A DNA stretch of 63,374 nucleotides, filler included, from Octopus bimaculoides (Eukaryota): assembly GCF_001194135.2 (NCBI RefSeq). It is 7 parts of 7 records of this genome, joined end to end, with 100 filler letters (N's around TTAATTAATTAA, not from the genome) between each part and the next. Parts side by side here need not be neighbours in the genome. Positions count along the whole stretch, not along the records: positions 1 to 6,247 come from NC_068983.1; positions 6,348 to 15,497 come from NC_069002.1; positions 15,598 to 32,019 come from NC_068997.1; positions 32,120 to 46,717 come from NC_068986.1; positions 46,818 to 53,645 come from NC_068984.1; positions 53,746 to 59,108 come from NC_068989.1; positions 59,209 to 63,374 come from NC_068988.1. The stretch is one strand, 5' to 3'. The translations under genes and the position numbers were made by a program. Each line of letters begins with the position of its first letter. The stretch's first letter is position 1. Below the pieces are notes generated by a model that searched no databases, was not told the DNA's origin, and was given only the letters and a program-made list of their open reading frames with translations. Below, piece after piece: positions 4,533-62,824 of the stretch.

Positions 4533-4581
4533 GTCTTACAGCTGTTTCTGGGAAGATCCAGTACTTCCCTTCATCGGAGAC
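4533..4581 (-). ncRNA. Minimal type I hammerhead ribozyme (PLE-associated)
   Basis: Minus strand reads GUCU / CCGAUGA / A GGGAAG-uacuggau-CUUCCC A / GAAA / CAGCUG / UA / AGAC. This gives stem I 4 bp, stem II 6 bp (A-A mismatch at its base), palindromic stem III and a GUA cleavage triplet. Confidence 0.8.
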
Positions 4582-5379
4582 AGAAAAAATAAAGGAATCT
4601 ATTATTATATCCATAGGCGGATATTTTTAGTATGAAGTGGTAAAGAATGTGATGCGCTGAAAAAAAGAGAGAACAGTACTTGAAGTGTAGTTTCATTCCA
4701 GTAGTAAATATCCGTGTAAAAATCCGTGTAAAGTAATCGTTGTGGGGATAAACCGGAAATAGATGTTGGAGCGAAGGTTGATACAGCATAGATAGCAGAG
4801 GTGAATATATGCCATACTGCGATGGATTTTTGCTTGTTTACTTGAAGAATGGTCAAGTCAAATGAAAAGTGAGCGGTAATTAGGTCAAGTCATGAAGACA
4901 GAATGTGAAAGGGGATAGAGGAGAGGTAGAGGTGGAGGAAGGTAGCGGTATATTTTCATGGTCAGTTGATCTTACAGGATAGAGGCGATGAGCATATAGA
5001 GTGAAGGAGGAATGGGGGGGATGAGGTTAAAAGGTCTAGTGAGTAGGAAGGAATGCGTGTATGTAGTATATAGGTGGTGGGGGTATGAGTGATAAACCAA
5101 GGACAGAGATAAAGGGAGAAATGGGTGGGAAAGGTAGTTAGTAGTATCATATTCTAGAATGCAGCCAAACCTATTTATAGACGGTGGAAAGGGATCGAAA
5201 GAAGTGACGTAGTCTGTATGCGTAGGTGGTGATGTTGCGAATTAGAGAGTAGAAGAAATAGATTTGGGGGTATATATATATGTGGTGATATGATCGAAAG
5301 GAAATAATCCTATTCAAAAGATAGTAAAGGATGGATGTTTGTGCCAGGTTGAATAGGTTGCCTATGGGGGGTCGTGTGA

Positions 5380-6245
5380 TTATGTTGCGTGATCGTTTGT
5401 GCAATTTTGATTGTGACAGAACTTAAATGTGTGGAAAGAGCGGTGATTGCAGTTCACCGCTCTAAACGCTTCGTTATATCGATTAAATAGAGTGGGAGAA
5501 TTGTATTTTAAAAAAAAATATGGAACGCCCCCGTTAGGCAAAGCTTGCAGTTGGAACGCTGGCCCTGGTATGGAGTTCCAGAATCTAAGATGGACCATTT
5601 TAAGGTGTATTGGGTATTTGTGCTTTTGAGGTGATGAATATGATTGGCTAATGTTGTAGATTTACTGTGTTTGTCGTATCTAAATGAGTGCAAATGGGCT
5701 GCGTAGCGATGTTTGAAGTTTTTAGTTGCACCTATGTATGTAGCAGTAGAGTTATGTAATAGATTTCTCACGGTGCATTTATATATGACATTGTATGTTA
5801 CACAATGTGTTTGAAGCGGACAGATAGTCCCGGAGCGACAGTTACAGGTGTAGGAGGCTAGAGGGTTGCGTATGCTGGTGGGTGAGTTATTATCATTGGA
5901 GGATATGTTATTGGGGGATGTGTAGGAATCTAGATCAATGGAATTATTGTTATGGCTATTTGTCCTATCAGTGTTATTATTGGTATTGTTATTATCTAGA
6001 ATATTAATGGGTTGGGATCCATTGTGGTTTTGTTCTAGTGTACGAGCGTTAGTGTTAGAAGAACGTATATCAGTGTCCGTGTTGGGTGTATGTGTGGGTC
6101 GGGTGCTGGCGCTAGCGTAGTTATGGTTGCTTAGGTTTTGGTAGTAGAGCGAGAGTTTATGTTTGTTAGAAGCTGCTATAATAGATTCAAAGTTAGGAGT
6201 GGTAGAATACGATAATTTTAAAGTGGATCTGTTGAATATAGAGTG
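5380..6245 (-). pseudogene. PLE ORF remnant: RT thumb end, N/T/S-rich linker, CxC-x5-C-x5-C, GIY-YIG endonuclease (one frameshift)
   Basis: Manual translation gives HSIFNRSTLKLSYSTTPNFESIIAASNKHKL...CNCRSGTICPLQTHCVTYNVIYKCTV...TYIGATKNFKHRYAAHLHSF...WSIL...CKLCL. A frameshift at the T/A run near 5507-5518 continues as KYNSPTLFNRYNE...CNH, ending at the stop at 5380. Confidence 0.88.
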
Positions 6246-6291
6246 GTNNNNNNNNNNNNNNNNNNNNNNNNNNNNNNNNNNNNNNNNNNNN

Positions 6292-6303
6292 TTAATTAAT
6301 TAA
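6292..6303. other. Assembly linker TTAATTAATTAA inside a 100-bp gap (also 15542-15553, 32064-32075, 46762-46773, 53690-53701, 59153-59164)
   Basis: An identical 12-mer with stops in all six frames is centred in ~44+44 N, six times in the window. Confidence 0.95.
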
Positions 6304-6347
6304 NNNNNNNNNNNNNNNNNNNNNNNNNNNNNNNNNNNNNNNNNNNN

Positions 6348-6631
6348 CCACAGACACGTGTACCCTTAACGTAGTTCTCGGGGATATTCAGCGTGACACA
6401 GTGTGACAAGGCTGACCCTTTGAATTACAGGCACAACAGAAACAGGAAGTAAGAGTGAGAGAAAGTTGTGGCGGAAGAATACAGCAGGGTTCGCCACCAT
6501 CCCCTGCCGGAGCCTCGTGGAGCTTTAGGAGTTTTCGCTCAATAAACACTCACAACGCCCGGTCTGGGAATCGAAACCGCGATCCTATGACCACGAGTCC
6601 GCTGCCTTAACCACTGGGCCATTGCGCCTCC
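6348..6631 (-). mobile_element. tRNA-derived SINE, family D (tail cut by gap)
   Basis: Minus-strand head GGAGGCGCAATGGCCCAGTGGTTAAGGCAGCGG...GGTTTCGATTCCC has pol III A/B-box-like motifs. Nearly identical to 58696-58980. Confidence 0.85.
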
Positions 6632-59993: not shown

Positions 59994-60260
59994 CCGAATC
60001 CTGTCTTTAGCCTTGAATTAGTTTCTGTCCTTCTGGGGTTTATATTTATACAGATGTTTATACATATCAATATCTACACATATAACTGGTACTCATATGT
60101 ATATGGATACGTGTGTACCCACATATACATACATCTGCATATCCTGTGTATATGGATATGTGGATGTACACGTATCCATATACATATGAGTACCAGTTAT
60201 ATGTGTAGATATTGATATGTATAAACATCTGTATAAATAAAATATATATATATATATATA

Positions 60261-60763
60261 CATGGAATGACCAATTTCAAAGACTGTTGGATTTTACTCA
60301 TAGGGTATTGGAATCTTAATGGATTTACAAAGGCAATGACCAATCTTAAAGACAACTGGGTTTGACTTACAAGGTATTGGAATCTTATATGTATACCATT
60401 CTTCCTAAACAATGGATTTACAAATACAATATCCCTACATTCACTCTCTATTTCCTATCTTAACTAAACTAACTATTACTTAACCATCCTCTCACACTGT
60501 CTCCGATGAAGGGATATAATAAATATCCTGGAAGCAACTGTAAGACCTTCTATTGATAAACGTTCTATATTGTACACAACTTTGGTTTTTTATCTCATTA
60601 CGAAAATTAAATCCTTATATTCACATGCTGATATATGACCTACGTTGGACCCCTTATTCGCATAATCACCGAACCTGGAGCTTAACTGTGGTCTATCCAT
60701 AGCACTTACTCAGCATTACCTGAAACCTCTGGGTCTAACTGACACCACTATCGCTCATAACCT
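60261..60763 (+). mobile_element. Probable solo PLE terminal repeat inserted in (TA)n
   Basis: (TA)n lies on both sides, and its hammerhead flanks (tgtctccgatgaaggga...ctgtaagac) match those of the PLE at 4398-6247. Confidence 0.7.
60499..60546 (+). ncRNA. Degenerate minimal hammerhead ribozyme
   Basis: GUCU / CCGAUGA / A GGGAUAU-aauaa-AUAUCCU G / GAAG / CAACUG / UA / AGAC. GAAA is mutated to GAAG and the palindrome is broken, so it is probably inactive. Confidence 0.7.
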
Positions 60764-60938
60764 ATATATATATATATATATATATATATATATATATATA
60801 TATATATATATAAAATATTAGTTAAAGAATAAAAAGACTGGGTTAACGACTCAATATATCACACCCCCTCAATGAACATATACAAGAAATACAGCATAAT
60901 CTGTCAAACATAAGGAATAAGAAGAAATAACGCAAGAA

Positions 60939-61186
60939 GAAATAATAAATATATAAAAATATAGCATATAGTATAAAATTTTTATACACGAATATATTGT
61001 TTCCACCGATAACATGGAACTGAAAAAAATTTTGAGTTAAAGGTATAATACAATACACGTGAATATCATTCCATAGAAGTTAAAAAAGTTAAAATTAATA
61101 CGAATAAAAATTAATACGGAAGGAGTAAAAATTTCAAATATATAATATGATAATATAATATAATATAAGTCGATATAGTAAAATAA
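60939..61186 (-). repeat. Inverted copy of the PLE 3' terminal sequence (partner at 63154-63374)
   Basis: The reverse complement matches 63154-63374 at high identity apart from small indels. Confidence 0.92.
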
Positions 61187-62484
61187 GGTGTTTCCTTAAG
61201 AATTTCTTCAACCTAAATATTGTATTTGATGTTAACTCCAGAAAGGTTAATTTCCTGGACGTGACATTATGTTTGGATACGGGTCTCTATTGTCCGTTCC
61301 GTAAACCTAGCAAATCTGTGTCGTACATAAATGTTTCATCAAATCACCGAAGGTCCACCATAGGTAGTATTGTCCCTGGAATTTCAATTAGAATATCAAA
61401 TTTATCATCAAATGTAGAAAGTTTTAATCAACATGCGCCGGTTTATAACAACGCCCTTGAAGCAAGCGGATTCAAAAGAAAAATCTCATTTATGCATAAT
61501 ACGAGGTTTGATCGGGGCAAGGATAGTACATCTTTTGGTAGCAACCATAATAAGGAATTCTTTAGAAACAGGTTCCATAGAGACAACAATAGAATATATA
61601 GGTACACGAAACGTAATAATGTTAATTTGCGGATAAATAAACTGAAAGGCTCACGACCCAGAATACGAAAGGTAATTTGGTTCGCGACCCCTTTCTCTCT
61701 CAGGGTAAGAAATTTACCTAGGATGTTCTTTAGGATCCTGGAGAATAACTTAAGACCATAAGTACTATAGTATCTGCAACAGATCCTCTATTAAGTTTTC
61801 CTATTCTGGAATGCCTAATCTAGCGTAAATTATTGCCTCTCTCAATAGAAGCAAATTAAATAAACTTGAGCATTGTGAATATCCCTGCAATGGAAGCCCC
61901 GGCTCTGATAAAACAAGTTGTGAGTCACACAATGATAGTGGGATGTGCTCTCCATTCCCTCTGATTGTGCCGAAACCCAGGAATGGGAGGAGTGGAGCTG
62001 TTGATAAGGATAGACTGGCAAGGGCGCTCGAAATAAATTTAGGGGTAGCCAATGTAAATTATGTAATTGTAGAGACCCTCTATTATGTCCTTTGGGAGGG
62101 CTCTGTTTATGTACAAACGTAATATATAAGTGCACCGTCAGGGATGAGAACAAACTAGATAGGTTCTATATAGGAAGCACAAAGAACTTTAAGGCTAGAT
62201 ATAGAGCGCATGTGAGTTCGTTTTCAATGCAAAAATACAGTAACTCTACCACACTCGCCTCTTAACTACATGACCTCAAGAAGAGGAAGATAAAGTACTC
62301 TCTTGAATGGTCTATTATAGCGAGGGCCCCATACTTTAAGGCAAATATTAGCAAATGTTCTTTATGTATTAGGGAATCCCTTGCGATTCTCAGGTCCTTT
62401 GGACCAAAAACCCTGAATAAGTTCATGGAGGTAGTCCCCTTCTGCGACCATAAGTTTTCCTCCACCTTCTTGGAAACTGTATAG
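61187..62484 (+). pseudogene. PLE ORF remnant: RT C-terminus plus GIY-YIG endonuclease (two frameshifts, stops)
   Basis: KVNFLDVTLCLDTGLYCPFRKP...YINVSSNH...RKVIWFATPFS; HKYYSICNRSSIKFSYSGMPNL; then from 62053 CKLCNCRDPLLCPLGGLCLCTNVIYKCTV...FYIGSTKNFKARYRAH...WSII...KCSLCIRE...CDH, stop at 62482-62484. Confidence 0.9.
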
Positions 62485-62742
62485 AGATAAAAATAAATTT
62501 AAAAGCAATAAATAATAGCAAGTGTAATAGTTTGCGTTAGGGTGATTTGAAACCTCCTAGATCGGTTTTGATACTGCAGCCTGTTTGGCTATTCTAAAAT
62601 GGCACTTTTTTTTTTTCTTTTTTTTTTTTGGAATCTTCCAATTATTTACATAGGCTGGTCCATTTTGTTTATATATATTTGCTCCTTAAAGAAATCATTT
62701 TTTTTTTTCATCTTGTGCATGTCGTAACTTTGTACATGTGTT

Positions 62743-62824
62743 TACCCTGACGAGGGGTCATCACCAATTTACACTCTATTGTGTTCTGAAATACAGTGGT
62801 GTACCTCCGAAATGGCCATAGGTA
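62743..62824 (+). ncRNA. Type I hammerhead ribozyme with enlarged stem II and palindromic stem III
   Basis: UACC / CUGACGA / GGGGU..CACCA...UGGUG.ACCUCC / GAAA / UGGCCA / UA / GGUA. The AUA triplet predicts cleavage after 62820. Confidence 0.85.

Follow-up and report, generated by a model that had tools for sequence, protein, structure and literature searches.

The window analysed here, a stretch of 63,374 nucleotides from Octopus bimaculoides, holds five motifs that are very probably type I hammerhead sequences. Two of them appear to lie in the 3' ends of decayed Penelope-like retroelements of the Hydra clade, three likely lie in shorter end-fragments, and all are predicted to cut only as pairs. 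The window sequence is draft animal DNA, AT-rich and with numerous microsatellites, and includes 6606 N spread across 29 gaps. An earlier reading of the sequence (hereafter the original prediction) had named five hammerhead motifs, and all five were borne out at the coordinates and on the strands it gave. It had missed their host: hammerheads of Hydra-clade Penelope-like retroelements are published (PMC8557442), and hammerhead-bearing Hydra-clade elements are a known kind, octopus included. The value of the finding is mostly one of annotation, namely that octopus DNA would be strewn with hammerhead-bearing Hydra-clade ends, as published for other invertebrates and for a single octopus family.

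The usual hammerhead position numbering is used throughout, and ^ marks the predicted cut. Motif 1 (4581 to 4533, minus strand) reads GUCU-CCGAUGA-A-GGGAAG/CUUCCC-A-GAAA-CAGCUG-UA^AGAC, with a CCGAUGA core in which C replaces U at position 4 (U4C), A.A at the helix II base, the helix III strand A-CAGCUG-U, and a GUA triplet with the predicted cut between 4537 and 4536; its helix I has an 8-bp extension (UAUGGAUA/UAUCCAUA). Motif 2 (49258-49325, plus strand), GUA-CUGAUGA-42-nt domain II-GAAA-CCAUUGG-UU^UAC, has the canonical CUGAUGA core, a domain II closed by A-U, the helix III strand A-CCAUUGG-U, and a GUU triplet predicted to be cut after 49322. Motif 3 (55617-55661, plus strand), CGAACG-CCGACGA-AGGG/CCCU-GAAA-UUCGGA-UC^CGUUCG, combines a CCGACGA (U4C) core with a 6-bp helix I, an AGGG/CCCU helix II, the helix III strand A-UUCGGA-U, and an AUC triplet with the predicted cut after 55655; a gap of 301 N directly 3' of it hides its 3' side. 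Motif 4 (60499-60546, plus strand), GUCU-CCGAUGA-A-GGGAUAU/AUAUCCU-G-GAAG-CAACUG-UA^AGAC, again has a CCGAUGA (U4C) core but is degenerate: GAAG replaces GAAA (A15.1 to G), and CAACUG is no palindrome. Motif 5 (62743-62824, plus strand), UACC-CUGACGA-55-nt domain II-GAAA-UGGCCA-UA^GGUA, has the canonical CUGACGA core, a long branched domain II closed by G-C, the helix III strand A-UGGCCA-U, and an AUA triplet predicted to be cut after 62820. The domains II of motif 2 (49268-49309, 42 nt) and motif 5 (62754-62808, 55 nt) fold at -12.2 and -16.0 kcal/mol, respectively.

The hammerhead core (C3-U4-G5-A6-N7-G8-A9, G12-A13-A14, A15.1-U16.1, H17) is complete in motifs 2 and 5. Motifs 1 and 3 deviate at U4 (C) only, and motif 4 at U4 and A15.1. 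In all five, a helix I of 3-6 bp and a helix II of 4-7 bp adjoin the core, and the motif ends in helix I (type I). Motifs 1 and 4 share 77% identity over 65 nt, and motif 4 is, judged by sequence, a decayed sister in which A15.1 and the palindrome are gone. The motifs therefore form four families (motifs 1 and 4 together, and motifs 2, 3, and 5 singly), where at least three had been claimed. Several other statements of the original prediction needed trimming. Motif 4 is degenerate, its helix III homo-duplex reaching only -1.6 kcal/mol. The stem III strands were described as palindromes, but UUCGGA of motif 3 is self-complementary only via two G-U pairs, and CCAUUGG of motif 2 has a U-U mismatch at its centre. 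The three CCGANGA cores were placed in two families with unrelated stems; helices I and III are indeed unrelated, but the helix II base AGGG...CC(C/U)-N is common to both, and motifs 1, 3, and 4 have CCGANGA-AGGG...CC(C/U)-N-GAA in common.

A GIY-YIG endonuclease frame ends 805 nt upstream of motif 1, on the strand that carries the motif. The host fragment (element 1, 4398-6247, minus strand) is of the Hydra type and comprises a linker, the endonuclease, some 800 nt of non-coding sequence on the 3' side and the motif; both its ends are masked by assembly gaps. The linker (CNCRSGTIC, that is, CxCX5C) and the endonuclease occupy 5382-6245 (minus strand), in a frame broken near 5510 at a T run, where reads differ by 5 bases, with CxxC before the break and CxH after it (CKLC..CNH). 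Motif 5 lies 265 nt behind the stop of the open reading frame (ORF) encoding the endonuclease of element 5 (61180-62484, plus strand). This 5'-truncated, decayed ORF is interrupted by stops and frameshifts and spans the end of a reverse transcriptase, a CNCRDPLLC linker (likewise CxCX5C), and a GIY-YIG endonuclease with the pattern CxxC-E...N...CxH (CSLC..E..N..CDH). It aligned, in three ordered pieces of 41-53% identity, to residues 383-797 of the 806-aa P0004, the nearest full-length relative. The 3' terminal part of element 5 (63154-63374) recurs as an inverted copy at 60939-61186 (minus strand; 86% over 248 nt), joined to the truncated 5' end, an arrangement typical of Penelope-like elements (PMC8557442, legend of Fig. 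2).

The endonuclease remnants of the two elements display 46% identity over 111 aa. Both are without a CCHH finger and have a single C between the equivalents of GIY and YIG. A protein search yielded 2853 relatives at E <=0.001, and CxCX5C was present in 111 of 150 matches. P0004 carries RW(R), DKT, YRDD, CxCX5C, CxxC, and CxH; the RWK/DKT region lies outside both window elements, and the relatives P0004 and P0022 have RW(R/K) plus DKT. A C-terminal GIY-YIG endonuclease following the reverse transcriptase was found in element 5 by alignment with P0004, and element 1 includes linker and endonuclease. Compared with the Hydra-clade diagnostics given in section 11 of PMC8557442, these features suggest that elements 1 and 5 are decayed Hydra-clade Penelope-like elements, a placement made by diagnostic motifs, with the likeness to two published proteins, Hydra-1_Obim and Hydra-1_Amil, assessed only visually. 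Pfam returned no family for the two window proteins and neither a reverse transcriptase nor a GIY-YIG family for eight long relatives; the assignment of the elements therefore rests on motifs and phmmer. A word-index protein search gave 23 candidates, none of them significant. Motifs 1 and 5 thus appear to be located in the 3' ends of Penelope-like elements, as may motif 4 by its likeness to motif 1. The linker of element 1 shares 64% identity with P0002, an O. bimaculoides protein labelled 'probable serine/threonine-protein kinase roco9', which in part corresponds to the linker of this Penelope-like family and is likely misannotated. Two copies, 95% identical, of a 287-nt interspersed repeat occur at 6348-6634 and 58697-58983, one of them directly upstream of the gap at element 1, and several other families resembling short interspersed nuclear elements (SINEs) recur through the window.

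Motifs 2-4 are considered to be without an ORF because a profile of 21 long relatives yielded no third protein remnant in the window. They are likely truncated ends of Penelope-like elements, as suggested by their architecture, their likeness to motif 1 or Hydra-1_oBim, and their (TA)n neighbours, (TA)n being the target of Hydra elements (PMC8557442). Motif 2 lies within a piece of about 310 nt, and motif 4 within a piece of about 500 nt, each flanked by two (TA)n tracts at summed distances of 246 and 457 nt, respectively. Random sites are enclosed by (TA)n within 300 nt in 2.6% of cases and within 500 nt in 4.1%. Motif 3 has a (TA)n tract 486 nt upstream, no upstream protein remnant and the gap downstream. 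Just upstream of the fragment with motif 4, a near-perfect 200-nt inverted repeat (60040-60242; 90% self-match) reaches 72.8 bits with a microRNA model, solely through being a long hairpin, and a 53-nt direct repeat pair (60266-60387; 81%) stands at the start of that fragment.

File S2 of Craig et al. (2021; PMC8557442) contains 26 Hydra hammerhead rows from 25 families, one of them from O. bimaculoides (Hydra-1_oBim). All 26 rows combine a CUGA core with a 7-8-nt near-palindrome between A15.1 and U16.1; an extra base precedes GAA in 19 rows, and the first helix II pair is mismatched in 15. The O. bimaculoides row reads acca-a-tggt-t and resembles motif 2 in the CCA-N-UGG helix III arms and U17, whereas helices I and II differ. 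The window motifs are like the Hydra-clade hammerheads of that paper in being type I, in having a family-specific near-palindromic helix III and a weak or mismatched first helix II pair and, for motifs 1 and 5, in their place near the 3' end, downstream of a C-terminal GIY-YIG endonuclease whose linker is CxCX5C; (TA)n is a probable target here as well. They differ in the CCGA core of motifs 1, 3, and 4, in the helix II base (A.A, A.G or A-U here versus U.U, U.C or G-C in the 19 rows with an extra base), and in the domains II of motifs 2 and 5, which are longer than in any of the tabulated Hydra rows.

Further likenesses emerge from the available parts of other reports. Cervera and De la Pena (2014; PMC4209133) described thousands of mostly solo motifs per genome, for example about 4,000 in coelacanth and 9,000 in Xenopus, which belong to several families, act as dimers and have low activity. 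These minimal hammerheads (min-HHR) of metazoan Penelope-like elements resemble the present motifs in their many families, solo truncated copies, palindromic helix III, and weak dimer action; unlike them, they mostly have a 2-nt palindrome (no helix III), and the core variant described for them is U3-A8, not C4. More than 6,000 type I motifs of 16 families are known from Acropora (PMC7229834). The dimer-cleaving Penelope variants of Lunse, Weinberg, and Breaker (2017, as cited in PMC6765202) also have a short palindromic stem III. Non-LTR retrozymes are likewise type I hammerheads in multi-copy animal repeats, but they form short tandem arrays and circular RNAs (PMC7229834; 10.64898/2026.07.22.740005). 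No such array surrounds any motif here: repeated flanks were found for none of them within the window, the 3' side of motif 3 being hidden by its gap. The expectation that these ribozymes would be largely unannotated is consequently true of Rfam but not of the literature (PMC8557442, PMC4209133, PMC7229834).

Single-copy helix III hairpins were unfavourable in all motifs (+0.4 to +6.4 kcal/mol). Homo-duplexes of helix III, computed with both junction pairs enforced, gave -11.1, -8.9, -5.1, -1.6, and -11.3 kcal/mol for motifs 1 to 5, respectively. In motifs 1, 2, 3, and 5, the helix III strand is thus self-complementary yet too short to form a stable helix within one copy, and motif 4 is decayed. 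A tandem transcript would bring two motif copies together with their strands swapped: the first copy would supply its GAAA strand and the 5' arm of helix I, and the second the matching UH strand and the 3' arm. This swap would yield an 8-9-bp helix III that is impossible for a single copy, and from the connectivity of the junction helix I would likewise be intermolecular in the dimer. The transcript would be cut slowly, probably with help from the protein of the element; the hammerhead of an anole Penelope element is protein-assisted in vitro, and RNA-seq ends are absent at its cut site (PMC11167929). Reverse transcription would start at the 3' end and often stop early, which would explain why the hammerhead end is present in far more copies than the ORF. 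The 3' ends would be scattered into (TA)n tracts, and most solo copies, these five included, would be inert. The palindromes would differ among families because a self-complementary strand can change only by mirrored substitution pairs. Two families probably have C at position 4 as their normal state, and this base would make cleavage slower.

Sequence reads were placed on element 1 (4398-6247) only, at 80% likeness and for four of the 24 listed runs. In X1 DNA, the bin containing motif 1 was the deepest (summed depth 614,313), compared with 7,412-57,333 in the ORF bins. In X14 DNA, it reached 737,416, second to the next downstream bin (818,444), and the ORF bins 3,654-32,253. The motif 1 bin was therefore 11-83 times (X1) and 23-200 times (X14) deeper than the ORF bins, in terms of summed contig depth, which is not copy number and is inflated by short overlapping contigs. 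This pattern fits many 5'-truncated copies in two species and makes the very large ribozyme complement of the original prediction probable. In 21 contigs of X14, sequence of this family gives way to (TA)n at 4461; this position, some 75 nt beyond the predicted cut, is the probable 3' end of the element in the species of X14. Also in X14, the match of 21 contigs to the element stops exactly behind 4536, where the predicted 3' product would begin (among the 24 listed of 513 loose-end rows), and the sequence after this break resembles both the sense-strand sequence that precedes the motif and a 26-nt duplication of the downstream flank. The break may mark cleaved RNA copied into DNA, or one amplified junction, and is a lead only; by a rough estimate, a loose-end row would fall at 4536 by chance in 10-25% of such tables.

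Between 4407 and 4646, no difference from the window sequence appeared among the 40 listed of 506 difference rows, for which the ranking rule is not given. Since this region has the highest depth, C4 is suggested to be the majority base in the family of motif 1. RNA depth also peaks in the motif 1 bin (about 380 and 280). The RNA reads were traced to other copies within longer transcripts, because first mates map to both strands, most reads are less than 95% alike, and about 60% continue into unrelated sequence. One transcribed sister copy (65 reads) has U for A before GAAA, CAGCUG kept, U16.1 lost, and a different loop II. A run search with element 5 (60830-63374) revealed no RNA run among those listed; runs with small shares were set aside.

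Several observations weigh against dimer-cutting hammerheads in Hydra-clade ends as the explanation of the five motifs. Minimum-energy folds of the single strands gave a hammerhead with a notable z-score in none of the five cases (-1.8 to +1.1). The helix III inserts of motifs 1, 3, and 5 are 6 nt long and loop-less, whereas all 26 tabulated Hydra rows have 7-8 nt with a 1-3-nt loop (PMC8557442). The absence of a protein remnant at motifs 2-4 leaves the link to architecture, likeness and neighbourhood, and (TA)n is common in the window, with 49 tracts and 43% of random sites within 500 nt of one. The remaining 466 of the 506 difference rows could hold a U4 minority. The original prediction had called for RNA ends at the predicted sites, and none were found for the family of motif 1: reads cross the predicted cut, there is no pile-up of ends at 4536/4537, and those listed fall at 4690 and 5611 only. 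As evidence against cleavage this counts for little, because about 6/100 of each of two runs were read and the libraries were fragmented. U4C lowers in vitro activity considerably (PMC3088659), and the ribozyme of the anole Penelope element was unnecessary for insertion in vitro (PMC11167929).

The CCGANGA (U4C) core, present in three of the five motifs (1, 3, and 4) and two families, is the only feature that may be unreported, the rest being of a published kind. Together with A10.1 and a loop-less palindrome of 6 nt, it makes a variant that is absent from the 26 Hydra rows of PMC8557442. Our literature search, which did not cover Lunse 2017 or Arkhipova 2017 and so does not establish absence from print, found neither a report of U4C in animal Penelope elements nor one of heterodimer tests. 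Elsewhere, U4C is a natural variant. A viroid hammerhead carrying it supports infection (PMC3088659), and C/T degeneracy was observed in a deep-sea RNA virome survey based on CYGANGA (PMC13481778); these hammerheads share C at position 4 with the octopus motifs but, as far as those sources describe them, are not from animal retroelements and not of the dimer type.

The CCGA-core motifs could instead be catalytically dead in all copies, their structure being kept for another role, such as binding a protein, priming or pairing between RNAs, or being simply inherited. A pair other than G-C at 10.1-11.1 should slow cleavage. The low activity of U4C, the lack of RNA ends at the predicted cut in the family of motif 1, and the dispensability of the anole ribozyme point the same way. 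We nevertheless regard dead cores as somewhat unlikely: two families that differ in helices I and III have both retained the rest of the core, the pairing of helix I, and the palindrome, the U4C viroid hammerhead works in vivo (PMC3088659), and degeneracy at this position recurs in the virome survey (PMC13481778). A bolder version of the hammerhead interpretation would have at least two high-copy octopus Hydra-element families fix an attenuated yet working U4C, A10.1 hammerhead, with RNA ends defined by the cut being copied into DNA. Since neither helix I nor helix III would form within one molecule, only same-family RNA could then cut the many solo transcripts in trans. Taken jointly, these claims are distinctly doubtful. 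Should C4 be fixed in high-copy families, censuses based on CUGANGA would undercount such ribozymes, and these families would form a natural test of whether Penelope elements need hammerhead cutting at all. Should same-family trans-cleavage be true, scattered copies inside host transcripts would, hypothetically, be family-specific cut sites.

For motif 3, and perhaps motif 2, an origin from non-autonomous retrozyme-like tandem repeats or SINE-like elements was also considered. No ORF remnant accompanies motifs 2-4, the gap right after motif 3 is of the kind that occurs at collapsed repeats, and retrozymes themselves derive from the ends of Penelope-like elements (10.64898/2026.07.22.740005). 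However, the flanks of motifs 2 and 3 have no second copy in the window, motif 2 occurs once, with (TA)n tracts on both sides, and the helix III architecture fits the Hydra rows of PMC8557442. Such an origin is unlikely, and truncated ends of Penelope-like elements remain the preferred source of these motifs.

The original prediction proposed that non-identical stem III palindromes act as a family-specific pairing code. As a selected property, such a code (helix III, together with helix I) would spare the RNA of co-resident elements from trans cutting. Helix III pairing was unfavourable in all nine cross-family combinations (+0.2 to +7.1 kcal/mol), compared with -5.1 to -11.3 kcal/mol in intact homodimers and -4.7 kcal/mol for motifs 1 and 4 of the same family. 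The helix I arms, similarly, form 3-6 bp with their cognates, 0-2 bp across families, and 4 bp between motifs 1 and 4. In the published sets, six H. magnipapillata families (1, 2, 3, 5, 8, and 18) keep the same atgg/ccat and tgcc/ggca stems while helix III takes four forms (PMC8557442), and Aedes families have either CGCG or GGCC (PMC4209133). The specificity itself thus finds support in the pairing energies, but helix III gives an incomplete account of it because helix I is also intermolecular in the dimer. Selection for it is very unlikely. The helix III actt-t-aagt is common to five of 14 H. magnipapillata families, families 1 and 18 have one helix III in common and families 2 and 5 another (PMC8557442), CGCG occurs in both Aedes families 1 and 3 (PMC4209133), and the arms of motif 2 recur in Hydra-1_oBim, a different octopus family. 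Moreover, unrelated 6-7-nt palindromes would be expected to be orthogonal under the null, and tandem transcripts tether the partners in cis (PMC6765202). Since five of 14 H. magnipapillata families have one and the same helix III, family specificity looks like a by-product rather than a selected code.

The comparison with shuffled sequence proposed along with the original prediction came out in favour of the motifs. A loose descriptor (CYGANGA plus GAA(A/G), helices I and II of at least 3 bp, and a 6-7-nt near-palindrome) matched exactly the five motifs, versus a mean of 0.019 and a maximum of 1 match in 1000 local dinucleotide shuffles in 500-nt blocks; none of the 1000 reached two matches, let alone five. 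Stricter descriptors gave 4, 2, and 2 matches, versus shuffle means of 0.003, 0.001, and 0.001. These figures are optimistic, because the descriptors were fitted after the motifs had been seen. Other CYGANGA cores among the matches listed, such as those at 14292 (minus strand), 49213 (minus strand), and 51168 (plus strand), failed the descriptor. We rejected a genome-wide extrapolation from five motifs per 56.8 kb of called bases, the window having been picked for containing them.

No hammerhead family was present among the 150 of 267 Rfam matches listed for the whole window, nor when the regions of motifs 1, 2, 3, and 5 were scanned singly. This lowers only the status of the motifs as members of an Rfam family. 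At least 119 metagenome matches to the CCGA pattern were rejected as chance, none of the 119 joining a helix I of at least 3 bp with a full palindrome, and five full-length Hydra-type proteins had no match in any of these stretches. Viral contigs gave 604 CCGA-pattern matches, in which no relative of P0004 was found. That the five motifs are mere chance matches in AT-rich repetitive DNA, as the post hoc descriptor, the lack of a hammerhead match in Rfam and the structure-less metagenome matches to the identical core pattern might suggest, is extremely improbable given the shuffles, the location of motifs 1 and 5 behind endonuclease genes, the fit to the published Hydra architecture (PMC8557442), and the failure of any of the 119 metagenome matches listed to combine a helix I of at least 3 bp with a full palindrome; for the set of five, chance origin is refuted.

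Some other features of the window deserve mention. Six gaps consist of 44 N, 12 bases, and 44 N (6248-6347, 15498-15597, 32020-32119, 46718-46817, 53646-53745, and 59109-59208); the centres at 6292-6303, 53690-53701, and 59153-59164 read TTAATTAATTAA, which is assembly filler, not biology. A telomere-like array of about 220 copies of CCCTAA/TAACCC (period 6; 72-82% matches), interstitial and degenerate, extends over 45234-46717 and is split by a gap. At 56035-56850 lies a decayed transposon with WYGRFK...ERSGRP and HPPYSPDL motifs and terminal inverted repeats of about 25 nt, which we take to be of the mariner/Tc1 type. A heavily decayed reverse transcriptase remnant, presumably of the LINE (long interspersed nuclear element) type, is located at 57360-58200 (CFIDFPKAIDSVNH).

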